From positions 1,440,001 to 1,504,000 of the forward strand of contig CAWCKY010000003.1 of NCBI GenBank assembly GCA_963796275.1: a stretch of 64,000 bases of DNA, read 5' to 3'. The number at the start of each line of letters is the position of its first letter. Positions within the stretch are counted from its first letter, which is position 1. The notes beneath the pieces are model-generated. The model was not told the origin of the DNA and ran no database searches. It worked only from the letters and a program-made list of their open reading frames with translations. This document shows, piece after piece, positions 39,085 through 58,971 of this stretch. Both the position numbers and the translations under genes were made by a program. Source of the stretch: an uncultured Acidobacteriota bacterium (GTDB lineage Bacteria > Acidobacteriota > Blastocatellia > RBC074).

Positions 39085-40101
39085 TTATTTCATTGACCTG
39101 GAAAGTCGGTTAGTTTCTGTGCGACGGATTTGAGCGGCTTTCGACAGATCGACTTCAATCCTGTTGCCGTTGACCAGAATGGTTGAGCCATCAACCAATT
39201 TTTGGTTCGTAATATCGAAGTTGAACAACTTTTCCACCAGGTCATAAGGAGCAAATATCTCTAAGACTTCTACATTTGGCCTCTGATTTTCATTTGGTCT
39301 CGGATTTCGCCTGGTCGGGGGGAGAATCTCTCGGTAGAAAATCCTCGCCCTGACTTTAATCCCATAAATCCCGTTGGCTTTTGTGATCACCGGCGCGACC
39401 TTGTCAAAAGCGGGCAAAACGATGTCCCTCAAAACAGTAGCGACCCTGGCAGCCTGTTTGAAATCACGAGAATTGAATTCGGGGATCTGAGACGCGGGTG
39501 AAAAAGCGATATATTTCTTCCCTTGAAATTCTGCGATGCCCATCTCGTCATCGTTGTAATCCAAACCTTTCACCAATTGAAACTGCTTATCCCGGGGGAT
39601 TTCCGCAAGCACGCCGGAAAACTTTCTTGGCAATAACTTTTCCGTTAATGCTTTGAATTCCTCGCTGGATTCGAACGACTCAGCGGAGCCGAAGAACACG
39701 AGTTGTTCCAAGGCCTCTTCCAAATCAGGTATAACAGACGCGAATCGGAGCTTGACGTAGGCTAAATTGCTCCGAAACTCGATCTCTGTGTACGCTTTTT
39801 CCTTGATGGACTTTTCGTAAAAAACTGTGAGCAAAGGCGGCCACCCGCGTAACTGCCAATCGGATTCCCCTTCGACTATGATCGTCTCTCCGACTACTGA
39901 CACGTTTGCGGTGTAAATCGGTACTCTGCCCCTAAAGCTGTAGTCCTCATATTTGAGTAGTTGGCGTGGAATCTTGATAACTACTGGCTGCGTTTTATTC
40001 AGGGTAATTTCGTTGTCGGAACCGACCGCCACGCCGCTGGCAACGCACAACAGCAAGTAGCAGCCGAAATGCAAGAATAAGCAACGAGTAAATCTTGTCA
40101 T
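39085..40101 (-). CDS. Exported hypothetical protein
   Basis: Long ORF with a signal-peptide-like N-terminus from MTRFTR; no recognised motif. Confidence 0.75.
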   Translation of the reverse strand: MTRFTRCLFLHFGCYLLLCVASGVAVGSDNEITLNKTQPVVIKIPRQLLKYEDYSFRGRVPIYTANVSVVGETIIVEGESDWQLRGWPPLLTVFYEKSIKEKAYTEIEFRSNLAYVKLRFASVIPDLEEALEQLVFFGSAESFESSEEFKALTEKLLPRKFSGVLAEIPRDKQFQLVKGLDYNDDEMGIAEFQGKKYIAFSPASQIPEFNSRDFKQAARVATVLRDIVLPAFDKVAPVITKANGIYGIKVRARIFYREILPPTRRNPRPNENQRPNVEVLEIFAPYDLVEKLFNFDITNQKLVDGSTILVNGNRIEVDLSKAAQIRRTETNRLSRSMK

Positions 40102-40940
40102 AGGCTGAACCTTTCTGAATCGAGAGATAACAGGAGGGCAACTGCGCGACTCCACCGCGAAGTTGTCTTCCGCTCGAACCGTGTAATAATCTCCTAATTT
40201 CTTCGGGGTCAGTTAAGTTGTAATCTGGACTTTCTGCATCAATTCTACGCGGAGCGCCGCTCGGAGGCGAGAGCGCGCGGAGCTTTTTTTGCCTTTTTCA
40301 CGCTCCATTGCCGCAAGCAAACATGGCACTGGAATCTTCATTGCATTGCGGTGCTGCTGAACATCCGCATTGGTGTGATTTATCAATACGTATCTAAAAC
40401 CTTTTGATTACCGATCTGGTGTATGCGGACGAAGACCAATACATACGAGCGATCAGGGCTCAGGCCAGGGAAACATGCGCAACCTGAGAGCGGCAAAGCG
40501 GATAGATTTAGAGAGGAAATGCGTGAGAAGAGCGCGATGATCATTCAAAAGCCATTGGACACCGTTATTAATCGAACCTACCTTCCTCACCGGCCGTGAG
40601 CGCTAAAATGAGATCCTATCCGACTTGAAATTCTCCTGCCCGAGATGGATTAGGTTGGCGGCCAGAGTTGCATATCCGCCTTTGATGTCGGTCGTACCGC
40701 GACCGTAAAAATAACCATCGCACTAGAGATAGCTCGCCTGATCGCTCTATAGTTTAGCCTCCAAATAAAACCAGCTATATATCCTCCTCAAGTTTTGAAA
40801 TTCGGGAACGCCTGAAAATTTTTATCAATTCACATTTGAATCGGTGACATGCCTTGAAGCCCTCGATTCACTCAATGGTTGAAGAAGATAAATTAACTGG
40901 CTTCTACCACGATGGCAGAAGCGCGACGTGCCCCTGAGGA

Positions 40941-42242
40941 GTGCTGCTTATTATGTTTCGAGTTCCGGTAGAGCCGACGAGAACGACAATTGATGATGTC
41001 GCACCGCGGCTGGACGATGGACAGCTTTCTCAACGAACCGCTAACGCCGGCGAAATCTCCTCACCTCCTCCAAATAAAAACTCGAATTGGAGCGGATTGA
41101 TGGGGCGTCCGTTGCCGAGATGGGCGTGGCCAGTTGTGGCAGCGACTGGGGCGCTCATCGTTCTCCTCCTCCCGCTCCTTTTTTATCGAGCGCCGGGATT
41201 CACTGTCGTGGTGAGAAGTGTGCCGCCAGACAGCCGAATCTACATCGACGACGTGCCGCGTGGTATCCCCGGCGGCGAGAGAGGCGGGGATACCGCGACA
41301 GCATTAATCAGGGCGCATGGATTGAGATCGGGCGTCAGCCATACCGTTCGCGTAAGTTGTGGAGGTGGTGACGCCTCGCTCTATCTCGCGAATGGCACTT
41401 CGGTCAACGACGTATCGGCCCAGGATGGAGAGGTGGTTGACTTGACGGTAAAGAACTGCGGCCCACCGCCGGCCGAGATCGATTACAACGGCAAAATGCG
41501 CTTCATTGCGAGAGGCGCATTTCTGATGGGCGATAATCAGGGACGGCCTAATGAGAAGCCGGCTCGCCTGGTGGAGATAGATTACGACTATTACATCGAC
41601 AAGTACGAGGTTACCAATCAGCAATACCGAGCTTTTTCTAACAGCCGGATAGGCCGGGCCTTCCCCCGTGAGCCTGAGTGGGATGCCGATTATTCGGCGA
41701 AGCTGGATCATCCGGTTGCCGGAATTTCTTGGAATGACGCCAGAGCATTTTGTGAGGAGTGGGCGAAGAAGCGCTTGCCGACAGAAGAGGAATGGGAAAA
41801 GGCCGCTTCTTGGGATCCGAAGGCTTCCGAGGCCTCGCCAGTCTGGAAACGCAAATGGCCGTGGGGGAATGCATTCGATCCTGACCTCGTAAATTTCAGG
41901 TCGGGTCGTCCGATGCCGGTTGGCCAATTGTCCGACGGCGTGAGCGCGTACGGAGTGCTCGATATGGCCGGCAACATCGGCGAATGGGTCTCCGACGTTT
42001 ATCAGGCCTATCCGGGTAATCCGATTTCAGATCCAAACTACAGCGGTTCGTATCGGGTGCTTCGCGGCGGGACTTTCAAGACCACCGATGAAGATGGACT
42101 TCGCACGACTCGACGAAGTTTTGGGCCGCCTGCATTCAGCCCCGCCGAAAGTTCAGGCGCTATTTCTTTCATAGGTTTCAGGTGCGCGGTGAGAAGCGAT
42201 GATGCCGGTCTGCAGAATCACTTGAGGGGTGCGAATAGATAA
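40941..42242 (+). CDS. Membrane-anchored FGE/SUMF1-fold protein (TagR-like) with a PEGA-like segment
   Basis: TM helix; GAFLMG, IDKYEVTN, HPV.GISW.DA, RLPTEEEWEKAA, WPWG, DMAGNIGEW, RVLRGG and GFRCA. The FGE catalytic cysteines are absent. Confidence 0.88.
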   Translation: MLLIMFRVPVEPTRTTIDDVAPRLDDGQLSQRTANAGEISSPPPNKNSNWSGLMGRPLPRWAWPVVAATGALIVLLLPLLFYRAPGFTVVVRSVPPDSRIYIDDVPRGIPGGERGGDTATALIRAHGLRSGVSHTVRVSCGGGDASLYLANGTSVNDVSAQDGEVVDLTVKNCGPPPAEIDYNGKMRFIARGAFLMGDNQGRPNEKPARLVEIDYDYYIDKYEVTNQQYRAFSNSRIGRAFPREPEWDADYSAKLDHPVAGISWNDARAFCEEWAKKRLPTEEEWEKAASWDPKASEASPVWKRKWPWGNAFDPDLVNFRSGRPMPVGQLSDGVSAYGVLDMAGNIGEWVSDVYQAYPGNPISDPNYSGSYRVLRGGTFKTTDEDGLRTTRRSFGPPAFSPAESSGAISFIGFRCAVRSDDAGLQNHLRGANR

Positions 42243-42322
42243 AAAGATTTCCGTCAGTTATCAAATGCAAAACGAACTATCCAGCAGAAACTGGAACCTT
42301 TTGAGTGAAGTGAGGGAAGGTC

Positions 42323-43051
42323 ATGATCCTAAAACACAAGATTTTTTTCGCCACCTTTCTGGGACTAATTTGCTCTCTACTGCTTGTTCGGGGCGCATCA
42401 GCCCAGGAAAACGATTACGGCACGTGGAAAAAGGCGGAGGTTATCACCAGGCCGGCGGCCAAAGGCAGACCCCGACCGTTCCGGATCAAATCGCCTTTGT
42501 TAACTATGCGCTGGCAGTTTTTTGTCGCAGGCGAAACGACTGAAGAGGCAATCGATCCGGCGAGACGAACCTTCGTCGACGATGAATTGGTACGGATCGC
42601 GGTCCAGGTTAATCAAATAGGATACGTCTATGTCATCAATCATACGGTGAAGCATGACAACAGCATCGAAGGCCCGTTTCTCATCTCTAGAGGACACTAT
42701 CAGATCAAAAAGGATCAACAACTGGTGCTACCTCTGCTATGCCCCGACCCGAATCGAATAAATGGCAAATGCTGGTGGCGGACCAAATCGCCGCCGGGAC
42801 GAGAAGTAGTCACCATCATTTTCAGCAGGGATGAGATTGAAGAATGGAAATATCCGGACACCAGCGAAGGGGATTCGCTGGTGAGCGAATCCCTGATTTA
42901 TTCCCTGACGCGCGAATCCCCGGATACAAACCGGAAGATATTGATGGGACCGCTTCAGAGGACCAATCGGGGACAGATCACGGAGGTATGGAATCCCAAT
43001 CCGAAACGTAACGAAGTGCTGGTTGAAAGAATCGAATTCGCTCACGAATAA
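42323..43051 (+). CDS. Exported DUF4384-like protein 1
   Basis: Signal peptide ending ASA-Q; F.DDELVRI...N..GYVYVIN and PPGREVV.IIFS. Confidence 0.65.
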   Translation: MILKHKIFFATFLGLICSLLLVRGASAQENDYGTWKKAEVITRPAAKGRPRPFRIKSPLLTMRWQFFVAGETTEEAIDPARRTFVDDELVRIAVQVNQIGYVYVINHTVKHDNSIEGPFLISRGHYQIKKDQQLVLPLLCPDPNRINGKCWWRTKSPPGREVVTIIFSRDEIEEWKYPDTSEGDSLVSESLIYSLTRESPDTNRKILMGPLQRTNRGQITEVWNPNPKRNEVLVERIEFAHE

Positions 43052-43219
43052 CTGAAGAGTGTGCAACCTGAAAGTTACTTGTTATCAAAGTTCTGATCGG
43101 CTCCCAAGGAGACGGATGACTATTGCTCCGATATATATCGCTCAGGGCGTAGCTGGATCTAGAACTATGGAGCTCAGTCTTTAGTATGCACAACCTTCAA
43201 TAACTGAATGAGGTACTAA

Positions 43220-44026
43220 ATGAGATCGGACAAGCGAAAACAAAGTATTTTTATTGCCCTCGTATCGTCCGTCCTGCTTTGTGGCGTCATTCTCGCCCAG
43301 AATACGCCGCGCGCGCGTACGCTGACGCTCAATGGTCAGGATGTGACGAAGAAGCAGGATGGGCTTGAGATTCAAATCCTAAAGGAGGCCGGCGGAAAAT
43401 GGGTATTCACCGGACAGAATGAGGAGTTTAAGTCGGGCGATAAAGTGCGGGTCCAATTTTGGAGTAACATCAAGGGCTTTGCCTACTTCATCAATATCGC
43501 GCCGAGCGGCAAACAAAGGGTCATCTACAGCAGGGCGATAGAGAAGGGTAAGGATTACACGTTGCCCGGCATGGACGGCGGCAAGGAGATGTGGATCGAG
43601 TTCGATCAGGAGAAGGGCGTGGAGATTTTGAAACTCGTTGTGACCCCGACACCGATTAAAGTCTTCGACGAGGCGTTGAGCCGGTCGCAGGGCGAAATCG
43701 TAGAATCGGTCTTCAGCGTCTCCGATGAGCTGCTTGGTGACGAACGCAAGCCGGGACAGAGTTCCGCGCAGATAGCAGTGCCGAATTCCGGGCCGGGTTT
43801 AAATCAGCGGTTCGAGCAAGTGGTGATGGTTCAACCGCAAGGATCGCAGGCGTGTCTTCGCGCTCGCGGACTCGGCCTTCGCTGCCGCTCCCTCGGCCTC
43901 GATCCTCCCGACCCGAAAAAAGGGAAAGGGGCAATTGTCGTTGCAATGCCGGACTCGAAGAGCGCGACGGGCAAGCTTAATAAGGATGAGGCGATCGTCG
44001 TCGAACTTCGCTTCAAACACATTTGA
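43220..44026 (+). CDS. Exported DUF4384-like protein 2
   Basis: Signal peptide ending ILA-Q; FKSGDKVRV.F.SN.KGFAYFIN..PSG and FD..KGVE.L.LVV. Confidence 0.72.
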   Translation: MRSDKRKQSIFIALVSSVLLCGVILAQNTPRARTLTLNGQDVTKKQDGLEIQILKEAGGKWVFTGQNEEFKSGDKVRVQFWSNIKGFAYFINIAPSGKQRVIYSRAIEKGKDYTLPGMDGGKEMWIEFDQEKGVEILKLVVTPTPIKVFDEALSRSQGEIVESVFSVSDELLGDERKPGQSSAQIAVPNSGPGLNQRFEQVVMVQPQGSQACLRARGLGLRCRSLGLDPPDPKKGKGAIVVAMPDSKSATGKLNKDEAIVVELRFKHI

Positions 44027-44142
44027 AAAGAAATTGATCACGGGCAACGAGGCCCACTGGGGCAATGGGGCATATGGTCCTAACAGGCTTTGTCTATCCC
44101 CGGTCACCGGCGCCAATCGCTTTGAACCTTTCTTAACGTTCT

Positions 44143-45504
44143 ATGGTTCGATTTAGTCTGCCAGGAGGCTTGATGTCAGGTGCGCTGAAATCGAGATCGG
44201 GATCTGCGTGCAGACTCCGAACGCGACGCTATCCGGAGTCATACGCGGAATCACAATGGAATAGGTCGAGGATGACAGGATTCGCCTTGTGGCTCTGCAC
44301 TATCGTGGTGACGATCAATGCCAATATTCCGAATACTGACGGCTCATCAATTCTCACGCAGGCTATCGGATCGCGGGAGTCTGAGAAGAGTGGCATTCTC
44401 GTGCGGGATGCGAGGGTCAGAGTACGCCGCGCGATAGCGGCTGTTGGGCTAATTCTGGTCAGTGAAGGTGATGGTGATCAGCCACGGCCGAGCGGTTCGG
44501 GCGTCGTCATCCGGCAGGATGGCGTGATCGCCACCAACTGGCATGTCATTAAGCAGCGTAACTCCGATCGGCATTACAAGGAGATTTATTTCAGCCTAGC
44601 CGCAGATAGCGGCGCATCGCCGCTCGATTCGTCGAGCTTTCGAATGCGGGTGGTGGATTTCGATCGAGAGCTCGATCTGGCTCTAATGCGCATTGTCACG
44701 GACGACGAGGCTTCGGGGGAGCAGTCCCCGCTGATTTTGCCGTTCATCGAAATGGGTGACTCACAAGCCATCGAATTACTCGATGATCTGGTGATCATCG
44801 GTTTCCCCGCGATGGGAGGCGCGACAGCCACGGTCAGCCACGGGATTGTCGAGGGCAAAGACAATGTCGAGGGATGGATCAAGACGGATACGCGCATGCT
44901 GCACGGAAATAGCGGCGGGGCCGCAGTCAGCGCTGAGGGCAAGCTGATCGGGATTGCCACCAAGGTCGAAGTCGATCTGGCGCAGAATGATGTGCGGTTG
45001 GGTGCCATCGGCTACCTGCGCCCGTCAAACCTGGTTTCAAAAATGTTCAACAGAATGATCCAGGGAGAACGATCGGAGGTGACTTTATTGAACAGTTCTC
45101 TCGAACAGGCTTCGCCCACACCCCAACCTTCGTTACCCGTCAATGTCAGCGGCTCGGTGAGATTTGCGGTGAACGGAAACCCGATAGCGGGAGCGCGTGT
45201 AGGACTGCTCATCACCGGACGAGAAGTCGCTCCGAATGCGCTTATTGGCTGGGGAGGGACAAATGCCGACGGCTTTTCCCAATTCGAAAATTCGGTGCCG
45301 CCCGGGATGTATCCATTGCGCGCGAGAGTGGTCGGCGATGAACGATATGCGCCTTACGAGCAGGAGATCGAGATCTCACCCGGAATGAATAAGCTGGTCG
45401 TTGAGCTGAAACCGGCAAACGTAGCAAACGTGGCAAACGTAGCAAACGTGGCAAACGGGGCAAACGGGGCAAACGAGCAGAGAGCGCGAAAGGCCAGTAA
45501 GTGA
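44143..45504 (+). CDS. Trypsin-like (S1) serine protease with C-terminal beta-sandwich (start may be 44272)
   Basis: GSGVVI, catalytic triad TNWHV / DLAL / GNSGG, and IGFP. Confidence 0.9.
   Translation: MVRFSLPGGLMSGALKSRSGSACRLRTRRYPESYAESQWNRSRMTGFALWLCTIVVTINANIPNTDGSSILTQAIGSRESEKSGILVRDARVRVRRAIAAVGLILVSEGDGDQPRPSGSGVVIRQDGVIATNWHVIKQRNSDRHYKEIYFSLAADSGASPLDSSSFRMRVVDFDRELDLALMRIVTDDEASGEQSPLILPFIEMGDSQAIELLDDLVIIGFPAMGGATATVSHGIVEGKDNVEGWIKTDTRMLHGNSGGAAVSAEGKLIGIATKVEVDLAQNDVRLGAIGYLRPSNLVSKMFNRMIQGERSEVTLLNSSLEQASPTPQPSLPVNVSGSVRFAVNGNPIAGARVGLLITGREVAPNALIGWGGTNADGFSQFENSVPPGMYPLRARVVGDERYAPYEQEIEISPGMNKLVVELKPANVANVANVANVANGANGANEQRARKASK
45415..45477 (+). repeat. Coding 9-mer tandem repeat (GCAAACGNN)x7, encoding ANV/ANG
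   Basis: Read directly; the same unit occurs in tssM at 51221-51256. Confidence 0.92.
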
Positions 45505-46646
45505 AGATTTGGGGAATCAAAAGCAGTGTGCTCGATGGTTTCGCGGCCAGTCGCGGGAGGCGCGCGATGATTCTCGAGCTGGTCTATCTGATCGAGCGGC
45601 TTTCGAAGTTTTGGATTGCTCTTGTGTCGGCTGCCATTTTGATCGTGATCATCATCATTCTGACATTGATAAAGCTCGTGACGGCTGGAAGCGATTGCGG
45701 TAGCGTAAAGATCATCAGCCCTTTATCGGGAGCGACTATCGACGAATCAGTTAAGGTACTGGTTGCAGCCGACCGTCCGGCATGTATATCGAGCATCAGT
45801 TATAAAATCGCCGGGCTTCAATTCGCCGAACCTGAGACGGATATATTTGAAACGAATCTCGATCCGCGCGTGATTGGTGAAAAGTTCCCCGATCTGACGG
45901 ATGGAGATTATGAACTGTCGATTTCTATCGAAACTGAGTCGGGCCAAACGGAGGCGGTGGTCGATAGTGTGCAGGTGAATATCGAATTTCCCAATATGGA
46001 GGGAGAGATCAGCCTGGAGAATATCCGCGAGATGGCAGAGAAACTCGCAACCAGGATCAATCAGCGCGGCGAGATTTTTACCTTCGATGACGAGTTTCTG
46101 ATTCAGATTCGCACCGCTACGCTGAACTATCGGACGGATATGTTCACAGGCGCCGAGAATATCGGCGCACGAATTCGCAGAACCAGTAATAGCGTGGGGA
46201 TACCTTCGCAACTGATGTTCCTGCTCGCAGCCAGTCGCAGCCGTTGCAGTATGGATCAGACGGTAGGCGGTTGTGGTGTCGATCCGGACGGAGCTGGAAC
46301 GTTCAAGGTTCCGCCTTCCATTATGAATCAATTTGGAGAGAGGTCAGCCGTCGATCACGAAATCGTGACTCAGGTAGCAGCCCGGCATTTGAAAGAGCTG
46401 ATCCAGGGGCAACGAGACGATTTTCTCTATGCTATCGCTTGTTTCGGCGAACCGAGCGCGCGAATCGGAGATATCTTCCAGCGCAACGATCAACAGGCTC
46501 GGCGTAATTTCCACGATCTCGTCGAGAGAGGCGAGATCAGACCGGAAGAATCGAAGAGAGTCGTATGTTTCCTGGCTGCCGGTATAGTTGCGGAGAATCC
46601 CGATAAATTTGGGATCAAGACAAGGTCGTTTGTTGACGTCTATTGA
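45501..46646 (+). CDS. Membrane-anchored Ig-like domain plus degenerate lytic-transglycosylase-like domain protein
   Basis: TM helix; ISPLSGATI..SVKV Ig-like start; C-terminal half aligns by eye with the SLT protein downstream but has ASRS in place of MIES. Confidence 0.72.
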   Translation: MKIWGIKSSVLDGFAASRGRRAMILELVYLIERLSKFWIALVSAAILIVIIIILTLIKLVTAGSDCGSVKIISPLSGATIDESVKVLVAADRPACISSISYKIAGLQFAEPETDIFETNLDPRVIGEKFPDLTDGDYELSISIETESGQTEAVVDSVQVNIEFPNMEGEISLENIREMAEKLATRINQRGEIFTFDDEFLIQIRTATLNYRTDMFTGAENIGARIRRTSNSVGIPSQLMFLLAASRSRCSMDQTVGGCGVDPDGAGTFKVPPSIMNQFGERSAVDHEIVTQVAARHLKELIQGQRDDFLYAIACFGEPSARIGDIFQRNDQQARRNFHDLVERGEIRPEESKRVVCFLAAGIVAENPDKFGIKTRSFVDVY

Positions 46647-46798
46647 CTCGTATGCGGCCCAGCCACCAGGGGCAGCGCGGGGAGCATAGGCGACCTGATG
46701 CTCGGTAAATTAAGCGATTTTCAAGGCATAGGTCGCATACCTCCCCGTACTGGAAAGCTTATTGGGGCGCACTATCTATTGGGACGCACTGAAACGAT

Positions 46799-46896
46799 GA
46801 AAGCGCCCGAGTACGCATCGCTTCCGGCGTGCGGGATTCGGCAGGGGACTAATGAAGAATCCTGGTGCTGGAAGCGATGCGTACTCGGGCGCTTTC
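46799..46896. repeat. 98-bp palindromic REP/MITE-like element
   Basis: Perfect 27-bp inverted repeat GAAAGCGCCCGAGTACGCATCGCTTCC (46799-46825 / 46870-46896) with an inner GGATTC/GAATCC stem. Confidence 0.9.
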
Positions 46897-46920
46897 CTGA
46901 GGAGATCAGTTACATTGAAT

Positions 46921-48480
46921 ATGTACACTTGGAACAACATCAAAACCAGAGTCGGGGGCAGCAGAGTGTGGCTCGCTATCATGACCGCCTTGCTGCTCGG
47001 AATTATCATTCTGAGCTGCATCGCCATGCTTGTGGCGAATCAATTCAGCAGCCGTGCCGCAGACCGCGAGTATGGCCAGTCACCACAATCTGAGCTGCCG
47101 CAGTCGACCTCCAATTCCATAGTTGCCATCAATGTGGCATCTGGAAAAACTTCTCGTCTGCTCTACACCGAGATGACCAGGGAGCAACAAGGCGATTTTC
47201 TAGAACGAGAAGCGGGTCGCGTCACCTCCTTAATAGGGAACCGCGAATACGTATTCGAGAATGAGGTGATCGATTTCATCAAAGAGTATGTGGATGGATA
47301 TGCGAAGAGGATAGCGACGAAGAGCACCGGGCTCTGGAATGAGGATTTGAACTATGTTTTTGAGCGAGCCCGGGAAAATGCGCCGAAGATTATAGCCTCG
47401 TTCAGAAGGGAAGGCGTGCCCGTTGTGCTCGGCCTTTATCTCCCGATGATTGAATCTGAGTATAACGAATGTCTCCAGAGCCCGGCCGGTGCGCTCGGGC
47501 TATTTCAGTTTATGCCGGCCACGGCGAGCGGTTACGGGGTTTCACCATCAGATCGTTGCCAGGTCGAGAAGATTGCGCCGGCTGCGGCAAGTTATATGAA
47601 GGACCGAATCCGAGAATTCGGCAATGATGGAATGAGCGTCGCGCTGGGCATCGCCGCCTATAACCGCAGCCCCCAATCGGTGCGGCGCGACCTTCAAGAT
47701 GTGATAGACAGCAGGTCCAATGAACGCAGTTTCTGGACGCTCCTGGCGAAGAAGGAGCAGCTGGATAAATATTTCCGCAACGAGAATATAAAGTACGTCC
47801 CGAAATTTTTCGCCGCCGCAATCGTGGGCGAAAACCCGGAAACATTCGGTTTACGAATCAGGAAGCTCTCGACTTACGACTATTCGCTGGCATCAGCCGA
47901 TAGCCCCTGTCGGAGTTTGGCGGATGGCGAAATCGAGGAGGCGGCGCGGCAGCTAATGGGGCGGATTAGCAACGATCTTCATATCTACGAATTCCCATCT
48001 GACAAATCACACATCGGCAGAGTGAAAGAAGTAATTGAGGGAAATTGTAATTCGACAGTATTGGGCACTCAGCTGCAGGCCCTCAGGCGCAGCCGGGCCC
48101 GGTTGATCGATTGGTCGGAAAATCAGATTACACCCGATCTGTTAGCTTATGCGGCGCTGGCCAAAACAATAGGGCGCGCTGCTGATAGCGTGGGGCAGGC
48201 CAGGAGAATGGCACCACAATTGATCGAAGTCAGTAAACTACTGAAGGACAGCAATGCCGACACCGCGCTTCTTTCGCTCGCCGCCTATGAAATGGGCCGG
48301 CCCTCGCGAGGGGTGCACCCGATCCACCGAAGGATGGAAGGCCGAATAAATCACGACACCGAACGCAATGTATGGGACCTTTATCGCAAAGGCGGGTTGA
48401 CAGAAGCTGAGTACCGTTTCGTCATTCGATTCCTGGCATTCGGGATCATCGCTCACGAACCGAGAAGGTTCGGTTATTAG
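46921..48480 (+). CDS. Membrane-anchored lytic transglycosylase (SLT/MltD-like) with a second, degenerate SLT-like domain
   Basis: TM helix; motif I MIESEY, motif II SPAGALGLFQFMPATA, motif III IAAYN and KYVPKFFAA. The ORF-track start at 46852 lies inside the palindromic element. Confidence 0.88.
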   Translation: MYTWNNIKTRVGGSRVWLAIMTALLLGIIILSCIAMLVANQFSSRAADREYGQSPQSELPQSTSNSIVAINVASGKTSRLLYTEMTREQQGDFLEREAGRVTSLIGNREYVFENEVIDFIKEYVDGYAKRIATKSTGLWNEDLNYVFERARENAPKIIASFRREGVPVVLGLYLPMIESEYNECLQSPAGALGLFQFMPATASGYGVSPSDRCQVEKIAPAAASYMKDRIREFGNDGMSVALGIAAYNRSPQSVRRDLQDVIDSRSNERSFWTLLAKKEQLDKYFRNENIKYVPKFFAAAIVGENPETFGLRIRKLSTYDYSLASADSPCRSLADGEIEEAARQLMGRISNDLHIYEFPSDKSHIGRVKEVIEGNCNSTVLGTQLQALRRSRARLIDWSENQITPDLLAYAALAKTIGRAADSVGQARRMAPQLIEVSKLLKDSNADTALLSLAAYEMGRPSRGVHPIHRRMEGRINHDTERNVWDLYRKGGLTEAEYRFVIRFLAFGIIAHEPRRFGY

Positions 48481-48505
48481 ATATAGGAGAGGTCAGGAGA
48501 ATTTT

Positions 48506-49891
48506 ATGAGTCGCTATCGACGCCTGGTATGGAATGAGGGGATGCTGCTTTCACCCCATCATTTCCAACAAGCGGACAATTACACGGAAGACCTCATCAA
48601 CACGCGCGTCGGCTGGCTGTTCGCGCACGAATGGGGAATACTCGACCTTCAGATCAACCGTGACGCAGTCGCTAATGGCTCGGTTCAATTGATAAGTTGC
48701 CGCGGCGTCATGCCAGATGGTCTGATCGTCAATATCCCGCAGACTTGCACGGCTCCTGAATCTCGCCAGGTGGGCGATCATTTCAGCCCGACTGCTGGCA
48801 ACCTTGATGTCTATCTTTCCGTCCCGGCGAGACAGGTGGGGGCGGCAAATTTTCAGGCCAGCAGGAATTCGACCAATGGAAACCATTCCAACACGCCAGC
48901 TCGCTTCCTGCAGGACGCGGGGCTGGTAGTTGACGAAACGTCGGGCGAGAACGAATTCCAGCTCGCATTCGCGCGTCCCAACTTCAAACTATTGTTCGAT
49001 GGCGAACCGCGCGAGGGTTACAATGTCATCAAGATCGCCGAATTACAGCGCACGGCCACCGGCCGTTTGAAGATCGCTGAAGAATACGTTCCCCCGGCGC
49101 TTCACATCGGTGCATCGCCGTGGCTCGAAAATCTGTTGCGCCAGCTGATTGAGTTTCTTGTCGCTAAAAGCAAGACGCTCGGTGAGCGGCGACATCAAAG
49201 CGGATCGGGCCAGGCAACCTTCACGACCGATGACGGGATGGTCCTGTGGACGCTGCCGACGCTCAATGCTGCAATCCCTCCGCTGGCGCATCTATTTCAT
49301 CAGCGCATCGTTCACCCCGAGAGACTATACACCGAGATGGTAAGACTGGCCGGCGCGATGATGACGCTGGTCTTCGACCGCCATGCCAAAGACCTGCCGC
49401 GTTACGATCATCTCGATCTTTACCAGACCTTTCGCCAGCTCGATTTCGATATTCGCTTCCTGCTCGAAAGGGTCGATCCCCAGCGTTATGTTCCGATTCC
49501 ACTCGTACAGGAACGCCCAGCTCTGTACGTGGCTCGGGTCAATGATAATCGATTGCTGCGCGATGCCGAATTCTTCCTCGCCGTCGGCGCGCAGGTGCCC
49601 GAGAACAGGTTGATCGAGCGGGTGCCGTTCGCCGTCAAGATTGCTCACCGCGATGGTATTGACGTCGTGATCAACAACGCCCTGAGCGGCGTCAGCATGA
49701 CGCACGTCAGGCCGCCCGGACAGATTCCGACCCGCGCCGGGTTGCATTACTTCCGGTTGGACCGCAACGACCTCGACACCTCGCTCAAACGTTTTTGGGA
49801 TTTTATTGTAGCGACCAAGACCCTCTCCGTCTGGGTCGCTGATGAGTTCCCGGAGGCGAAGCTGGAACTCTATGCGATCAAACCTCAATAG
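48506..49891 (+). CDS. tssK: T6SS baseplate subunit TssK
   Basis: VWNEGMLLSPHHFQQ, GVMPDG, YVPP, HPERLY and YDH.DL. Confidence 0.95.
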   Translation: MSRYRRLVWNEGMLLSPHHFQQADNYTEDLINTRVGWLFAHEWGILDLQINRDAVANGSVQLISCRGVMPDGLIVNIPQTCTAPESRQVGDHFSPTAGNLDVYLSVPARQVGAANFQASRNSTNGNHSNTPARFLQDAGLVVDETSGENEFQLAFARPNFKLLFDGEPREGYNVIKIAELQRTATGRLKIAEEYVPPALHIGASPWLENLLRQLIEFLVAKSKTLGERRHQSGSGQATFTTDDGMVLWTLPTLNAAIPPLAHLFHQRIVHPERLYTEMVRLAGAMMTLVFDRHAKDLPRYDHLDLYQTFRQLDFDIRFLLERVDPQRYVPIPLVQERPALYVARVNDNRLLRDAEFFLAVGAQVPENRLIERVPFAVKIAHRDGIDVVINNALSGVSMTHVRPPGQIPTRAGLHYFRLDRNDLDTSLKRFWDFIVATKTLSVWVADEFPEAKLELYAIKPQ

Positions 49892-49898
49892 GAGCAGT

Positions 49899-50600
49899 AT
49901 GCAGGATACATTTTTTTCAAATAGCGCGTATACCATCTCGGACAACTGCCTGATCGATACATCGGCGCCTCTACTCCGAATGATGATGAAGATCAAAGCG
50001 GGGTTGGTTACGCCGTCCAATGAGATGCGTCATATGATCCACGACCTGTTCAAAAAATTCGAAGAGCGCGGGGCGAACAACGGTTACAGAGAAAGCCAAT
50101 TGCAAGATACCAAATTCGCACTAGCCGCGTTCGTTGACGAGACGGTGCTCGCCGGCGGGTTCCCGCTTCGCGAAGAGTGGGAGCGATATCCCCTCCAGCT
50201 CGAATTCTTCAAGGAAGCCCTGGCTGGAAACAAGTTCTTCGAACGTCTCGACTGGTTGATCAAACAGGGGGAAACCGATGTGGTAGAGATTTATTACCTC
50301 TGCCTGCTGCTCGGATTCAAAGGCAAATACCACGTATTCCTCGAGGATCAGTTGCCGGCCGTGATCAATGCAGCTGCCGAAAATTTGCGGGGAGCGGGGC
50401 GATTGCGGAGATGCGTGCTTTCACCGCACGGCCTCCTGAACGATCAACCGGATCCGCCATCACCGGAACCGGAAGTGTCGCGTTGGGCAAAATGGTCCGC
50501 CATGGCAGCGGCCGGAGTGATAGCATTTGCTTATCTCATTTTGAATTGGTCGCTGGTCTCGACTCTTGAAGCGGCGATGAGGGAGAGCCTGTTGAAATAG
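49899..50600 (+). CDS. tssL: T6SS membrane subunit TssL/DotU (no OmpA domain)
   Basis: FALAAFVDE, W...PLQL, AG.KFF.RL, EIYYLCLLLGFKGKY and a C-terminal TM helix. Confidence 0.94.
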   Translation: MQDTFFSNSAYTISDNCLIDTSAPLLRMMMKIKAGLVTPSNEMRHMIHDLFKKFEERGANNGYRESQLQDTKFALAAFVDETVLAGGFPLREEWERYPLQLEFFKEALAGNKFFERLDWLIKQGETDVVEIYYLCLLLGFKGKYHVFLEDQLPAVINAAAENLRGAGRLRRCVLSPHGLLNDQPDPPSPEPEVSRWAKWSAMAAAGVIAFAYLILNWSLVSTLEAAMRESLLK

Positions 50601-50680: not shown

Positions 50681-53600
50681 ATGTTTTCGCTCAGTAAAAA
50701 TATCAAGTCAATATTCATTAACTCCGCGCTGGTCTCGCTGACCCTCATTGCCTTCCTGCTTGTGCTGATCTTCAGCGAGGACATAATCGTGACCATCATT
50801 CTGATTGCGCTCATCCTGTTGTTCTGGCCGGTCCGCTATCTGGTCAGGCATTACTTTAAGGAGCGAGCCGCACGCATGCCATCGCCTGACAGCCAGAAGA
50901 ATAGGGAAGAACCGATTCGCCCGTTGCGTAACTATAAAAATCTCGAAATCTGCGCTGCCGTAACAATCGATTTTCTTCGCCGGAACAGATCTGGCGCGCA
51001 TGGCGGCGAAGATGCGGTCTATGGCCTGCCATGGTTTCTGATCGCTGGTCCTCCCGCGAGCGGAAAGACTTCGCTAATGCTCTCGTCGGGCCTTTCGTTC
51101 AGCCCCCTCAAGAGTCAGCGCCACGCCGATCTGGATCTGCTGCGCCCGACAGACGAATGCGATTGGAGGATTACCGACGAAGCTGTCTTGATAGATTCCG
51201 CGGGTCGCTATCAATCCGAAGGGGCAAACGGGGCAAACGGGGCAAACGGGGCAAACGACGAAAACGAAGCAATCAGGGATAACCGGACGGCTGCAGCAAA
51301 CGGCGCAAACCGCGATGAATGGCTCGGCTTGATCGATATTCTCAAACGATATCGCAGGCAGCGCCCGCTCGATGGATTGGTGTTGACCGTTAGCGCCGCG
51401 AGCTTGATGGCTATGCATTCCATCGCCGAGGTCGAGCAGCAGGCCAGAATCCTGCGCTCTCGCATAAACGATTTGATCTCCGGCGTCGGGGCCAAATTTC
51501 CCGTATATCTGGTCTTCACTGACATGGACGCAGTTTCAGGATTCACCGATTTCTTCAGTTCGCTCGATGTCGAAGAACGTTCGGGGGGGTGGGGGATGAT
51601 GATCCCATTGGCTCAGAACGGACGGGCGTACTCTCTGTTCGATACGGAGTTCAGTCAGCTGATCGGTTCTCTGATGACTCGGCGCCTTCAGCGTCTAAGT
51701 GCCACCGAGGCTTCGGGCGAACACCTGAATATCTTCGACTTCCCGCTCCATTTAAACGCTGTTCGTCAGAAGTTCGGTGTCTTTACGACTGCTCTTTTCA
51801 GTCCGAACCCCTTCAGCGAACTGCCGCTGCTCCGCGGCATATACTTTACCAGTAGTGATGGCGTAACAGATCGCCCAACGGCTCGCAGCGAACGCGGTTC
51901 AACCGAAGAGATGCGGGTGAGGGGCAAAGGATTCTTCACGGAAGGCTTTTTCAAAAATGTTCTGCATCGCGACCGTCACATCGCCGCCACTTTGCAGGCT
52001 ATCCAGGTGCAGCCGAACTGGCTGCGCAAACTTAAATTGGCTGTCGCATCTTTCTGCGCGTTGTCGCTTTTGCTCCTGATGGGGATGATCGTTTCCTATT
52101 TCAATAATCTGAGATTGATCGGCGACGCGGGCAGGGCTGGGGCTGATCTCCTTCGACATTTCCGATCCGGGGTTGGGGGCCCGGCCGCGAAATTATCCGA
52201 AACCGAAACCGAAGACCTCGGCAAATTGCAGGACGTGTTGCTCAAGCTGGACGGTTTTGACCGGAGCTGGGTTGGCCCGGTCTCGCATCGCTTCGGCCTC
52301 TATCAGGGAGGGCGGATCAGACTTCGCCTGCGTGAAATCTATTTCGATTTCCTGGCTCAGCGCTTGCTCGATCACACGCTCGATGCGATGGCTAATGATA
52401 TCTATAGACAAACCCCTGCCCCGATCGGCACGCGCGCCCCAGATGGTTCAGATGTTCCGGGCGTCCCGGGTGGTTCGGTTGACCCATCCGTCCCGGCTGG
52501 CAAAGCTGCTTCCACAATCGTCTCCAGGCAGGAACAGATCGATGCTGCGGAGCAGGGGTATTACGATCGGCTCAAAGCCTATCTCATGGTTGAGCAGCAG
52601 GAGCGAGTTGAGCCGGTGTTTCTGCAACAGCAGCTGGCGCCCTACTGGAAGGAAGGCACATCGGCTGCTGATATGAGACATTTGTACTACTACGTCGAGC
52701 AGGCCAGCATCAATGGCGATGACGATCAGAGCATCCCGCGCCCGCAGTCTGACAGTCCGACCGTGGCTCAGGGGCGGGATAAACTGCGGAATTACGCGGC
52801 CGCCAAGCAGGTTTACAATGAAATCGTAAACAGCATAGGCAGACAGGGAGAGCCATACCGGTTGCGCGATGCGGTAGGCAGCCAGCAGGGAAGCGTGTGG
52901 TTTGACGACATCGGCTCACTGTCTATTCCATACACCTTTACAAAAGAGGCTTATTACAAGCACATCAAAGGCGAGGCGTGGATTTCGGCTTTCGAGGAGA
53001 TACGAGGTAAGAGCGAGAACGATTGGGTGCTTCAGCGTCCCTTCGACTATCAGCGCGTTCAGCCGAATGACCTGCGCCAGAGATACGAGCGGGATTACGT
53101 CTCAGCCTGGCAGAAATTTCTCGAAGGAGTTCGGGTCAAAGAGTTCAAGAAGAGAAATGACGCGGTAGAGGCGCTCGACTCTATTTCGCAACAGAATTCG
53201 CCTTTCACCACCATCTTCGATCAGGTCAGATCTCAAACGACGCTCTCAGAGCCCCCGATCACAGGCGGGGTTATCGCCTGGATCAAATCGTTTCTGACCA
53301 CGAAGGAAAAGGCCAATACGGGCGTCGAAAAATCTTTCACGGCGGTCAGGAGTTTCAAGATCGAAGATTATCTCGAGAAGTTGAAGGAACTGCGCCGCCG
53401 GTTGAATGAAATTCCCGGAGATGAATGGCGGCAGGTGGCTGCGGTGGCCGGGGACGAACGATATAAGAAGGCACGGGACGACGCGCGTGAGCTTTTGAGG
53501 TCCCTCAAAGCGAACCCCGGCAGCAATTCAATGGCCACATTGCTTGCCCGCCCGCTCGACAACATCGAGATCGCTTTGGGTCTCGGCGTCGAGAAAGATC

Positions 53601-54277
53601 GTGATGTGGCCTGGAACAATCTCTACACCCTGGCGAGAGGACTGGAAGAGAAATACCCATTCAGGAGCGGAAGTGCCGCGGAAGTGCAGCCTTCAGAGCT
53701 CGCCGATTACATCAACAAACTGGGGCAATTTTTCAATCGACAGCTGAAGAATAGTTTCGATCGGACTCCGGGACAGTATGTCCCACTACGCCGCGGCGAG
53801 TTTTCCGATGAGTTCGTTGCCTACCTCAATAAAGTTAAGAATCTGAGCGAAGCGCTGGGCCTCGGATCACTGGAGGAACAACCGGGACAACCGGGGCAAC
53901 CGGGACAACCGGGGCAACCGAGATTCAGCTATGGTCTGAAGCTGGAACCGCAGCCGGGACAAACGGTCGAGATGAGGATCGACGGGCAGACAGTTAGGGC
54001 CGATGACGGACCGCAAACCGCTACATTGAACTGGCCATCATCCGGGCAAACCAGCGGAGTTGAGCTCGTAACCATTGAAAATGGGCAATTCAGTCGTCTG
54101 AGGAATTACGGCGGCGCCTGGGGAATTTTCAGAATGGTGGCGGAACGCGGAAGACCGCCATATCAGTTAAGCTTAAATGGCGTGCGTATGACTCTCCAGC
54201 CGCCGGGAGCCAGGAATAATCCATTCGTCGATTTTACACAAATTCGCGCGCCCAGGAGCGTCGCCAGGTCTCTATAA
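50681..54277 (+). CDS. tssM: T6SS membrane subunit TssM/IcmF
   Basis: Two N-terminal TM helices, YGLPWF..GPPASGKT, DSAGRY, PLDG, FPVY, RGIYFTS, a third TM helix, GLYQG, LKAYLM and G.WGIFR. Confidence 0.95.
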   Translation: MFSLSKNIKSIFINSALVSLTLIAFLLVLIFSEDIIVTIILIALILLFWPVRYLVRHYFKERAARMPSPDSQKNREEPIRPLRNYKNLEICAAVTIDFLRRNRSGAHGGEDAVYGLPWFLIAGPPASGKTSLMLSSGLSFSPLKSQRHADLDLLRPTDECDWRITDEAVLIDSAGRYQSEGANGANGANGANDENEAIRDNRTAAANGANRDEWLGLIDILKRYRRQRPLDGLVLTVSAASLMAMHSIAEVEQQARILRSRINDLISGVGAKFPVYLVFTDMDAVSGFTDFFSSLDVEERSGGWGMMIPLAQNGRAYSLFDTEFSQLIGSLMTRRLQRLSATEASGEHLNIFDFPLHLNAVRQKFGVFTTALFSPNPFSELPLLRGIYFTSSDGVTDRPTARSERGSTEEMRVRGKGFFTEGFFKNVLHRDRHIAATLQAIQVQPNWLRKLKLAVASFCALSLLLLMGMIVSYFNNLRLIGDAGRAGADLLRHFRSGVGGPAAKLSETETEDLGKLQDVLLKLDGFDRSWVGPVSHRFGLYQGGRIRLRLREIYFDFLAQRLLDHTLDAMANDIYRQTPAPIGTRAPDGSDVPGVPGGSVDPSVPAGKAASTIVSRQEQIDAAEQGYYDRLKAYLMVEQQERVEPVFLQQQLAPYWKEGTSAADMRHLYYYVEQASINGDDDQSIPRPQSDSPTVAQGRDKLRNYAAAKQVYNEIVNSIGRQGEPYRLRDAVGSQQGSVWFDDIGSLSIPYTFTKEAYYKHIKGEAWISAFEEIRGKSENDWVLQRPFDYQRVQPNDLRQRYERDYVSAWQKFLEGVRVKEFKKRNDAVEALDSISQQNSPFTTIFDQVRSQTTLSEPPITGGVIAWIKSFLTTKEKANTGVEKSFTAVRSFKIEDYLEKLKELRRRLNEIPGDEWRQVAAVAGDERYKKARDDARELLRSLKANPGSNSMATLLARPLDNIEIALGLGVEKDRDVAWNNLYTLARGLEEKYPFRSGSAAEVQPSELADYINKLGQFFNRQLKNSFDRTPGQYVPLRRGEFSDEFVAYLNKVKNLSEALGLGSLEEQPGQPGQPGQPGQPRFSYGLKLEPQPGQTVEMRIDGQTVRADDGPQTATLNWPSSGQTSGVELVTIENGQFSRLRNYGGAWGIFRMVAERGRPPYQLSLNGVRMTLQPPGARNNPFVDFTQIRAPRSVARSL

Positions 54278-54424: not shown

Positions 54425-55588
54425 ATGACAGCAGTTTCACCAATAACGGACCGCGAAACCTTACTCAAACCGATCTCGCAAGAATCATCCGCCGGCCAGG
54501 ATCTGCGGCATATATTGTTCGATCAGAAGAAAGGGATTTATTGGCACGACCGGATCAGAGAGGCCCATCGCGAAAACATTTTTGAAGACGTTCCGAAACT
54601 TCCCGACTGGCCGGTAGTCATCGACCTCTCGATACAAGCTCTCACCTCGCTTACTAAAGATCTACAGATCGCCGCCTGGCTATCAGACGCTCTGGTCAAA
54701 CATAACGGGCACGACCGCCTGGCCGGCCTGCGCGACAGCCTGAACTTGATCCGCGGACTGATCGAGGACTACTGGGGTGAATTTTTTCCCGCGAGCGATC
54801 CGGCGGGCGACGATGGCCCGTTTAAAGCGCGCGCCAACATCATCGCGGCCTTCGACAGCAGAATGGGACTCGCGATCAGAGCCATTCCGCTGACTGAAAG
54901 TATGTCTGGCCTCAAATACTCCTTCATGGATTGGGAGGCTGCAAGGTCTTTCGACATCCCCGAAAAAGACCAATTCGACACGTTCGGTTTCAGCAATATT
55001 GAAAAGTTCAACTTGCTAAAGGAGCAAGCTGAGCAGGAGGGGAAGATCACCGGCGAGGATTGGCGAAAGGCCGTCAACGGCACGCCATATCACTTTATCA
55101 AGGAGCGTCTAGAGCTGCTTCAAAAATGTACTGAAGAATTGAATGCGCTTGCTGATGCGATCGACCTCCGCTTTGAGCTGGAAGCGCCCAGCTTGAGGGA
55201 GCTTCGCAGATCGCTCGAGGATATGACATCGCTCATGAAGAAGCTGGAACGGGAGAAACGTCCGCCTGAAGTAGCCGATGGAATTGAGCAATCGTTGACG
55301 ACGGTAGAGTCGGATTTGCAGAACGGAGAAGCGGGCGGTTTCGGATTGCCCGGCAATATGGGAAGCGTCCGGACCCGGCATGATGCGCTGCGCCGCCTCG
55401 CCGATATCGCTGAATATTTTCGCCGCACGGAGCCTCACAGCCCAGTCTCTTATCTGGTGCGGCGCGCTATCAAATGGGGAAATATGCCGCTCGATGTGTG
55501 GCTGGAAGATGTAGTCAATGAGATGAGCGTCCTCGGACAGCTTCGAGAAACGCTGGGAATTAAAGCTAATAACGATAGTGGGAGTTGA
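54425..55588 (+). CDS. tssA: T6SS TssA (ImpA N-terminal domain)
   Basis: LL.PIS...AG.DLR, DW, TKDLQIAAW and C-terminal YFRRTEPHSPVSYL. Confidence 0.94.
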   Translation: MTAVSPITDRETLLKPISQESSAGQDLRHILFDQKKGIYWHDRIREAHRENIFEDVPKLPDWPVVIDLSIQALTSLTKDLQIAAWLSDALVKHNGHDRLAGLRDSLNLIRGLIEDYWGEFFPASDPAGDDGPFKARANIIAAFDSRMGLAIRAIPLTESMSGLKYSFMDWEAARSFDIPEKDQFDTFGFSNIEKFNLLKEQAEQEGKITGEDWRKAVNGTPYHFIKERLELLQKCTEELNALADAIDLRFELEAPSLRELRRSLEDMTSLMKKLEREKRPPEVADGIEQSLTTVESDLQNGEAGGFGLPGNMGSVRTRHDALRRLADIAEYFRRTEPHSPVSYLVRRAIKWGNMPLDVWLEDVVNEMSVLGQLRETLGIKANNDSGS

Positions 55589-55623
55589 TGAAGATCAATC
55601 CCGAATACATAACGATGAAAAAT

Positions 55624-55696
55624 GCAGACCGAATTTACCGGGTTTTAAATTTATACCTATCCACAAAATCCTGACTGATCCTGTAAATCCTGTCTA
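55624..55696. repeat. Dispersed palindromic repeat, copy 2 (between tssA and tssB)
   Basis: AGACCGAATTTACCGG ... AATCCTGACTGATCCTGTAAATCCTGTCT; compare 25285-25352. Confidence 0.6.
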
Positions 55697-55715
55697 CTCT
55701 CGTGGAGATAAATAT

Positions 55716-57758: not shown

Positions 57759-57870
57759 GACACGGACCTGGGAAGGCCGCTTTATTGCAACTCACCGAAG
57801 CGGGGCGGCCGCTTCCAAACCCAATAACACTTAGCCATTCTTGGCACAATCTTGTAACTGGAGGAAATAA

Positions 57871-58967: not shown

Positions 58968-58971
58968 CCAC

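Follow-up and report, generated by a model that had tools for sequence, protein, structure and literature searches.

Three lytic transglycosylase-like modules, one with a full catalytic set, beside the type VI secretion genes of an uncultured Acidobacteriota bacterium

Analysis of a 64,000-nucleotide stretch of DNA from an uncultured soil Acidobacteriota bacterium of the Blastocatellia (assembly GCA_963796275.1, contig CAWCKY010000003.1, positions 1,440,001 to 1,504,000; hereafter the window, with positions counted from its first letter) showed that two neighbouring open reading frames (ORFs) hold three homologous modules resembling the lytic transglycosylase (LT) MltD. ORF A (45501-46646) contained one module, named Am, while ORF B (46852-48480) contained two, named d1 and d2, and the three were related far beyond chance. 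Both ORFs lie on the + strand, just upstream of the tssK-tssL-tssM genes of a type VI secretion system (T6SS) on the same strand. Their products are regarded, with moderate confidence, as inner-membrane-tethered periplasmic accessory proteins of the T6SS, in which d1 cuts the cell wall and Am and d2 are non-catalytic partners that likely grip it. A preliminary description of this DNA, made from its letters, had pointed to the same two ORFs; both were present, and every peptide that it quoted was found in their translations.

Homology, architecture and folds of the three modules

The proposal of three homologous modules was borne out by BLASTP (E 3e-4 to 1e-8) and by profile-profile comparison (96-99%, E 5e-9 to 1e-16). 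Residues 166-381 of ORF A matched residues 111-350 of ORF B at E 2e-8 (25% identity, about 218 columns) and residues 351-542 at E 1e-8, and the two ORF B segments matched each other at E 3e-4 over 205 columns. Alignment of the family profiles with hhalign linked d2 with d1 (96.0%, E 4.7e-9, 172 columns), Am with d1 (97.2%, E 3.3e-11, 195 columns), and Am with d2 (97.6%, E 3.7e-12), the last pair reaching 98.8% and E 9.7e-17 over 175 columns when wider alignments of 48 sequences each were used. The starts of the modules had also been called similar, and N-terminal helices common to all three fell within the profile alignments.

The G-L-x-Q and A-Y-N signatures of LTs are known as motif II and motif III. 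The alignments equated Glu201-Ser of d1 (IESEYN) with Arg246-Ser of Am (SRSRC) and with Lys438-Thr of d2 (LAKTIG). The GLFQ of d1 was GTFK in Am, and this segment was deleted in d2. The AYN of d1 corresponded to CFG in Am and to AYE in d2, in a register given by BLASTP and by the profile alignments of ORF A with d2 and of d2 with d1; the direct hhalign alignment of Am with d1 was one residue out of register at AYN/CFG. The motif readings RS, GTFK and CFG for ORF A and KT and AYE for the second domain of ORF B, given in the preliminary description, held in these alignments.

ORF A (+ strand, as are all features of the two ORFs) encoded 381 amino acids from a GTG codon, and its likely start is the ATG at 45567 (Met23); its 22 homologues start mostly at MILELVY..., that is, at Met23. 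A transmembrane (TM) helix at residues 37-57 (45609-45671) was recognised as a hydrophobic run inside model helix 19-61. It was followed by an Ig-like (Big_7 / FN3-like) domain at about residues 64-165 (45691-45995), identified by a sub-threshold Pfam match and a fold match: Big_7 scored 20.8 bits, below the cut-off of 24.1, and 35.3 bits in the orthologue of the related locus L014, while residues 62-165 of the model gave VIA Z 10.0-10.5 to FN3-like and Ig-like modules. Module Am made up residues 166-381 (45996-46643), with Arg246 at the catalytic Glu position (codon 46236-46238), GTFK and CFG. The C-terminal part of ORF A is predicted to be periplasmic, because in orthologues fused to an FHA domain the helix divides this cytoplasmic domain from the remainder.

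ORF B encoded 542 amino acids in the order TM helix, linker, d1, d2. Its start had been placed earlier at 46921, which is Met24 of the 46852 frame; the frame agrees and the exact start does not, as database homologues begin at residue 22. The TM helix at residues 39-62 (46966-47037; model helix 36-66) is preceded by Lys31, Arg33 and Arg38, and the part C-terminal to it would lie in the periplasm because of the positive-inside rule and of the FHA-fused relatives. Module d1, an MltD-like LT, comprised residues 105-345 (47164-47886), with Glu201 (codon 47452-47454), GLFQ at 216-219 and AYN at 269-271. Module d2, a degenerate LT-like module, comprised residues 350-542 (47899-48477), with Lys438 at the Glu position (AAA, 48163-48165), the GLxQ segment deleted and AAY kept.

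Models of both proteins were obtained with AlphaFold2 from family alignments, with mean pLDDT of 76.9 for ORF A and 80.7 for ORF B. Module d1 matched Pfam SLT (PF01464) at E 7.6e-15 with 54.9 bits (cut-off 21.3) over residues 185-283, and with 56.5 bits when the module was excised; against PDB sequences it matched MltD (8rhe_A) at E 2.7e-7. The best fold match of d1 was also MltD (VIA Z 18.0, root-mean-square deviation (rmsd) 2.8, 190 residues, model 123-345), followed by MltF (Z 15.5), MltE (13.7), then Slt and MltC. The window's Am gave no match to Pfam SLT even at E<=10, and 20 of 48 Am relatives matched at E<=0.1. The Am family profile found MltD among PDB sequences at E 0.0042, in an alignment that sets Arg against the catalytic Glu, and the best fold match of Am was MltD 8rhe_A (VIA Z 13.9, rmsd 3.6, 179 residues, model 181-381), followed by MltE (Z 12.6), MltF (11.8), Slt (11.4) and MltC (11.2). 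Superposition on SLT/MltD folds, suggested in the preliminary description, succeeded for d1 and Am, and for d2 a lysozyme-like fold is predicted from profile homology.

The d2 region of the ORF B model had pLDDT of about 75-96, and the whole-protein fold searches of ORF B returned matches to d1 only. Descent of d2 from an LT is indicated by its profile links to d1 and Am. SLT clusters of Acidobacteriota came up for d2 in the ESM Atlas at 0.85-0.89, short of the 0.9 mark, which makes them a lead only. A complex prediction of residues 105-542 of ORF B with residues 166-381 of ORF A scored 0.00, was run without controls, and has no bearing either way.

Catalytic positions and selection across relatives

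Three sources supplied the related loci: 61 related genomes, of which 18 had a match; metagenome contigs, with 52 loci; and species-representative genomes, where 80 of 247 relatives were kept. The titles of the species-representative records were of Acidobacteriota type in 74 of 80, and the other 6 were titled as uncultured Clostridia or Heliobacteriaceae metagenome-assembled genomes (titles as given). Alignment columns were tallied over distinct modules from database proteins and these fetched loci, with 153 modules for d1, 75 for Am and 41 for d2.

In d1, Glu201, Glu203, Gly216 and Gln219 were present in 153/153 modules, and Tyr270 and Asn271 in 151/153. The catalytic position 246 of Am was Arg in 70 modules, Gln in 4 and Glu in 1. 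In motif II of Am, Gly266 was found in 75/75 and position 269 was Arg (30), Lys (25), Gln (19) or Leu (1); in its motif III, Phe315 was found in 67/75 (Tyr in 8) and Gly316 in 74/75. The five modules without Arg at the catalytic position (four with Gln, and that of L009 with Glu) were divergent Am modules of loci L004 and L006-L009, and they possibly represent stages on the way to a loss of catalysis.

Position 438 of d2 was Glu in 19 modules, Lys in 17, Asp in 2, Gln in 1 and Arg in 1, with one gap. This split tracked relatedness: the clade of the window carried Glu, Asp or Gln, and a distant clade carried Lys (17/41). In the AAY of d2, Ala477 was invariant and Tyr479 was present in 36/41. 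The Glu position and AAY were 36-41 residues apart in d2 (41/41), compared with 52-79 in d1 and 61-87 in Am; the GLxQ segment is therefore missing from the whole d2 family. Because of this missing segment and of the distant clade with Lys, d2 is predicted to be degenerate throughout its family. Only d1 keeps the full catalytic set, as the preliminary description had it (Glu201 in 153/153, Arg at the Am position in 70/75, GLxQ deleted from d2 in 41/41). Am and d2 should be unable to use the canonical Glu mechanism, Am because its Glu is replaced by Arg, and d2 because GLxQ is deleted and Lys stands here at the Glu position.

Selection was estimated as dN/dS (omega) by the NG86 method on codon alignments from the fetched loci. 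In matched sampling, locus pairs were picked on d1 identity alone (75-98.5%), which gave 589 pairs from 76 loci; the median omega was 0.068 for d1 (n=315), 0.135 for Am (n=220) and 0.160 for d2 (n=296), and these values are approximate because dS was high (medians about 1.1-1.5). With pairs filtered for each module separately (70-97% identity), the medians were 0.090 for d1, 0.103 for Am, 0.134 for d2 and 0.139 for the FHA domains. The DNA nearest to the window was locus L014, with identities of 75% (d1), 61% (Am) and 60% (d2), and comparison of the two gave omega, from dN and dS, of 0.135 for d1, 0.171 for Am and 0.205 for d2. A metagenome scan with a single protein found no relative, and a scan with an alignment found the 52 loci, among which were none of the 67-90% identical relatives known as proteins, so that the dN/dS values refer to loci outside the window's closest lineage.

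Purifying selection on Am and d2 is clear, and is relaxed about twofold relative to that on d1. Because of this selection and of their conservation across 76 three-module loci, Am and d2 are read as pseudo-enzymes and not as products of local decay. The earlier claim that the dead domains are retained was upheld by the omega values of 0.135 and 0.160, and the reading of d2 as a dead domain was qualified by the Glu that its closest homologues keep.

Two public contig sets were compared with the window. Set X1 was identical over five short pieces, including 48139-48331, and may be the source sample; set X2 held a relative at roughly 90-95%.

The FHA-TM-LT trio in relatives and the proposed role of the modules

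The related loci were annotated with custom profiles, including one for FHA, and with the T6SS proteins of the window. Of the 142 loci with any match, 76 had the complete set of three modules, and tssK was found in 67 of these 76, most of the others being cut by contig ends; the loci were retrieved through the modules themselves, and the counts describe linkage of the trio to the T6SS and not the share of T6SS clusters that carry it. In most relatives each module had a gene of its own, and in Blastocatellia relatives these three genes stood side by side. The common order was FGE-sulfatase protein, (DUF4384), (Trypsin_2), FHA-TM-Ig-Am, FHA-TM-d1, FHA-TM-d2, tssK, tssL, tssM. The gene types with FHA were FHA-d1 (102), FHA-Am (101) and FHA-d2 (75), and those without it were d1 alone (22), Am alone (19) and d2 alone (6), many of the latter being truncated ORFs. 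Fusion genes comprised five FHA-d1-d2, one FHA-Am-d1 and one odd d1-Am. FHA-bearing d1-d2 fusions were found in the database proteins P0015-P0026 (roughly 650 amino acids) and in loci L067-L070 and L073, and the Am-d1 fusion in L016; the FHA-bearing d1-d2 fusions arose independently. Recurrent fusion between members of the set suggests that the three modules act together, presumably in physical association.

An N-terminal FHA domain was carried by most ORF B homologues and by two ORF A homologues. In the orthologues of L014 and L038, Pfam FHA matched at E 1e-16 to 1e-19, and Yop-YscD_cpl matched as well. FHA (PF00498) had no match in ORF A or ORF B of the window or within the genome coordinates of the cluster, and had 18 matches elsewhere in the genome. 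The closest metagenomic proteins (74-90% identical) were likewise without FHA and had d1 and d2 fused. By comparison with its relatives, the genome has a reduced trio, which has lost all three FHA domains and in which d1 is fused to d2. The conserved FHA-TM-LT trio is the more interesting result, and the window holds its stripped, fused form. The overall picture in the preliminary description, three paralogous modules of which one is catalytic and the others are retained, stood; the Glu of d2 in the closest homologues speaks against part of it, and the trio context had been missed.

The space between d2 and tssK also differed among loci. In the window the end of ORF B and the start of tssK were 25 bp apart with no intervening gene, and the gap between FHA-d2 and tssK was >700 bp in 37/69 relatives. 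This gap often held a Cys-rich protein of roughly 270 amino acids (..CKAGCGAC.., e.g. L038:8793-9587), and in a few loci a 183-amino-acid protein (e.g. L077:8220-8771).

The anchoring of this T6SS in the wall was examined in its other components. The preliminary description had noted a TssL without an OmpA-type anchor, and this was confirmed, TssL having 252 amino acids with DotU only by Pfam. The cluster ORFs scanned, ORF A, ORF B and TssL among them, showed neither an OmpA-family domain (PF00691) nor any other peptidoglycan-binding domain of Pfam (E<=0.01 or 0.001). TssJ (PF12790) had no match at E<=0.01 in the genome itself, which is 94.7% complete, and the system may be one without TssJ. 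A role of Am and d2 as peptidoglycan anchors is plausible, and it is consistent with the data because TssL is DotU only and no peptidoglycan-binding domain and no TssJ were found.

In the proposed mechanism, d1 would cut glycan strands locally, letting the TssL-TssM complex and the tube cross the peptidoglycan, while Am and d2 would bind glycan strands and hold the complex in the wall beside the cut. Such binding would compensate for the OmpA-less TssL and for the TssJ that was not found. Am and d2 may also position or restrain d1, a role that would fit the fusions and the remodelled groove of Am equally well as wall-holding. In the relatives, the FHA domains would connect the three proteins with signalling through phospho-threonine or with the cytoplasmic baseplate, a connection that the lineage of the window would have dropped. 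The data establish the homology, the folds of d1 and Am, the state of the motifs, purifying selection, synteny, the fusions and the loss of FHA, whereas periplasmic location, catalysis by d1, peptidoglycan binding, physical association of the modules and any need for them in T6SS function are predictions. A bolder version is offered tentatively, as possible and still rather doubtful: the three FHA-TM-LT-like proteins would form a hetero-oligomeric trans-envelope "wall gate" specific to Blastocatellia-type T6SS, in which one member cuts and two dead paralogues clamp the cut strands in place of TssJ and the OmpA-type TssL/TagL anchors, and FHA domains couple the gate to phospho-threonine signalling or baseplate docking, the window having a fused, signalling-free form.

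Several observations weigh against the reading of d1 as cutter and Am and d2 as wall-holding partners. Peptidoglycan binding by Am and d2 is suggested by a single consideration, descent from a glycan-binding fold. In Am the polar residues of the groove are replaced (Glu by Arg, Gln by Arg, Lys or Gln, Tyr by Phe, Asn by Gly), and the remodelled groove could equally be a new ligand surface or a protein-protein surface. For d2, the one line that points to a lysozyme-like fold is profile homology: Pfam SLT had no match to the window's copy at E<=10 and none among 48 d2-type modules at E<=0.1 (0/48), and the d2 family profile found no LT among PDB sequences, its sole match, with a designer PPR protein, being spurious and due to repeats. 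Position 438 was Glu in all seven of the closest d2 homologues (74-84% identity), which leaves the window alone in its clade with Lys; its codon differs from Glu by one transition, GAA to AAA. Because the window's own clade keeps Glu, the Glu-bearing d2 of relatives may have residual or unusual activity. The preliminary description had held that Glu kept in close homologues would indicate simple decay in this copy. This Glu was indeed found in the seven, and the absence of GLxQ in 41/41 and the Lys of the distant clade point the other way. The high dS behind the omega values and the retrieval of loci through the modules count on the same opposing side.

The groove of Am bears on a rival in which the dead modules regulate d1, by activating, inhibiting or targeting it through protein-protein contacts, and do not anchor the complex in the wall; the inactive LytM factors EnvC, NlpD and DipM act in this way on amidases and LTs. 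Residues of the Am groove have been changed to Arg or Lys, Phe and Gly instead of being kept, the recurrent fusions among the three modules point to physical association, and published passages describe a precedent in DipM, which acts on the LTs SdpA and SdpB. Regulation would leave a T6SS with no other wall or outer-membrane anchor unexplained, and the regulator and anchor roles are not mutually exclusive; as a replacement for anchoring, it is thought fairly unlikely. The Glu at position 438 leads to another rival, that in relatives d2 is another enzyme that cleaves glycans, of an unusual kind, and that Lys438 either arose by a recent inactivation confined to the window or is a base-call variant; this genome would then combine an old pseudo-enzyme with a newly decayed enzyme. 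This would account for Glu in 7/7 of the closest homologues and in 19/41 of the family, one transition away from the window. It is set back by the GLxQ deletion in 41/41, by the lack of any Pfam SLT match among the 48 modules, and by the distant Lys clade (17/41), which stays conserved, with d2 omega at 0.16 across both clades. A base-call variant also fits poorly with the X1 contigs, which read the same letters over 48139-48331, though these possibly come from the source sample. This rival is judged improbable.

Two further explanations would detach the modules from the T6SS apparatus. It is very improbable that the genes encode LTs of ordinary housekeeping, or are duplicates in decay, and only happen to adjoin the T6SS. 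Other d1-like LT genes do lie far from the T6SS (C3:769371-774068), and several related loci have d1 alone (L112-L119), but tssK follows the trio in 67/76 three-module loci with constant gene order, omega is far below 1, and each gene in relatives carries FHA, like T6SS scaffold proteins. Least credible is a role as cargo of the T6SS, with a muramidase-type effector and immunity-like decoys. Peptidoglycan-degrading effectors are common among T6SS cargo, and weak fold matches to Tse3 (Z 8.6 for ORF B, 7.9 for ORF A) appeared among many lysozyme-like matches. Against this stand the N-terminal TM anchor, with a cytoplasmic FHA domain added in relatives, the position of the genes upstream of tssK and not beside VgrG and DUF4123 (which lie past ClpV), and the absence of PAAR, MIX and Rhs-type domains in the Pfam scan. 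Participation of the modules in opening and holding the cell wall for the T6SS is the reading preferred over these four.

Neighbouring genes and comparison with known systems

The neighbouring genes within 40941-64000 are all on the + strand. Downstream of ORF B, tssK (48506-49891) matched Pfam T6SS_VasE at E 2.5e-121, tssL (49842-50600; 252 amino acids, DotU only) matched DotU at E 2.5e-41, and tssM (50681-54277) had Pfam IcmF domains. The rest of the T6SS core, tssA, tssB, tssC, hcp, tssE, tssF, tssG and clpV, was assigned by Pfam in 54425-64000, with clpV extending past the end of the window. Beyond clpV (L013, G000:C3:1505099-1510057) were a Peptidase_C14 (caspase)-TPR protein, VgrG and a DUF4123 adaptor protein. 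By custom profiles, the window's cluster is the single T6SS of the 9.46-Mb genome. Database homologues with names were labelled Blastocatellia or Acidobacteriota.

Upstream of ORF A, Pfam assigned an FGE-sulfatase-domain membrane protein of 433 amino acids (40941-42242), two DUF4384 proteins (42323-43051 and 43220-44026) and a Trypsin_2 protease (44143-45504). In many relatives (L014-L016, L068-L086) synteny with the LT trio extended to the FGE-sulfatase protein, one or two DUF4384 proteins and Trypsin_2, and these upstream genes may form one T6SS accessory block with the trio. The FGE-sulfatase protein may resemble TagR, a likeness that the literature passages do not settle. A kinase fused to this protein was considered as a partner of the FHA domains; most complete FGE proteins in relatives had ~410-440 amino acids, similar to the 433 in the window, and only a few were longer (L069, L033, L083). 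A promoter and terminator scan of 40000-49000 gave background levels, with 5 promoter-like sites (6.5 expected) and 9 terminator-like sites (9.5 expected).

Some other features were recorded in passing. A second d1-like LT gene pair lay far from the T6SS at G000:C3:769371-770168 (-) and 772053-774068 (+); it encoded 265 and 671 amino acids (module residues 427-669 in the latter) and matched the stand-alone d1 pairs of L117 and L119. Short in-frame coding repeats were present at the C-terminus of the Trypsin_2 protein (45440-45504), which ends in ANVANVANVANGANGAN, and in TssM (50681-54277), which contained GANGANGANGAN and, close to its C-terminus, PGQPGQPGQPGQP. In the dcw cluster, murC (15292-16676) looked split into two overlapping ORFs, one (15292-16194) with Mur_ligase and Mur_ligase_M positions 1-154 of 200, and the other (15882-16676) with Mur_ligase_M 158-199 and Mur_ligase_C; the split reflects a frameshift or, alternatively, an assembly error.

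How a T6SS crosses the cell wall and stays attached to it is known for only a few proteobacterial models, namely recruitment of MltE, TagX, and TagL or an evolved TssL. What is distinct here is an LT inside the T6SS cluster together with two conserved dead copies, each of the three wired to FHA in most relatives. This is a concrete case of LT-fold pseudo-enzymes kept for a structural or regulatory role. Separate and fused genes, with and without FHA, provide natural variants for dissecting that role, and knowledge of T6SS accessory genes is extended to Acidobacteriota, which are abundant in soil and little studied. No description of an FHA-SLT T6SS protein or of the trio architecture was found in the full-text literature, as judged by titles and abstracts and with most subscription journals outside the search. 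The set may be viewed as a little-known peptidoglycan-remodelling accessory of the T6SS with pseudo-enzyme paralogues, which probably opens and grips the cell wall.

The closest known protein was P. aeruginosa MltD (family 1D; PDB 8rhe/8rhf/8rhi), the top match of d1 and Am, including the C-terminal YVPK...helix, and d1 shares its Glu-Ser, GLxQ and AYN motifs. Unlike MltD, the window proteins have no LysM domains and no lipoprotein signal, and carry an N-terminal TM anchor instead (plus FHA in relatives); all three modules have an extra N-terminal helical sub-domain, and two of the three lack the catalytic set.

Passages of a 2026 review of T6SS accessory factors describe TagX as a locus-encoded L,D-endopeptidase of the Acinetobacter T6SS, anchored in the inner membrane with a periplasmic C-terminus, and MltE as an LT whose gene is not part of the T6SS locus and which TssM of enteroaggregative E. 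coli brings to the membrane complex; TagL, TagN, TagP and TagW are described there as OmpA-type or putative peptidoglycan binders, TagH/Fha is also described, and these passages contain no locus-encoded LT and no mention of "acidobacter" (PMC13584744). By these accounts, the job proposed here, local peptidoglycan remodelling for assembly of the T6SS membrane complex, is the same as that of MltE and TagX. As with TagX, ORF A and ORF B lie inside the T6SS locus, and their products are probably anchored in the inner membrane with the C-terminus in the periplasm. MltE differs in being an outer-membrane lipoprotein with its gene outside the locus, TagX in being a VanY-type peptidase and not an LT, and neither is described with non-catalytic paralogues or FHA domains. 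TagL, "evolved" TssL and TagN, which root the complex in the wall when TssL is bare, are suggested analogues of the dead modules, TssL being bare here; the difference is that ORF A and ORF B have no OmpA/MotB domain (PF00691), and binding would use the lysozyme-like groove.

Genes for Fha often adjoin tssK-L-M, a place that the orthologues of Am, d1 and d2 take as well. The orthologues of Am, d1 and d2 begin with FHA and also match Yop-YscD_cpl, a likeness to Fha/TagH and to YscD/EscD-type proteins of type III secretion systems. Classical Fha1 is described, in passages on it, as cytoplasmic (PMC13713981), whereas the window proteins are without FHA and their orthologues are bitopic with LT-like periplasmic ends. 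A parallel for the dead modules is given by the inactive LytM factors EnvC, NlpD and DipM, which, in the passages that describe them, retain a hydrolase fold without catalysis and are kept to control or place cell-wall enzymes; their fold is that of a LytM metallopeptidase, and that of the modules described here is the lysozyme-like fold of LTs.

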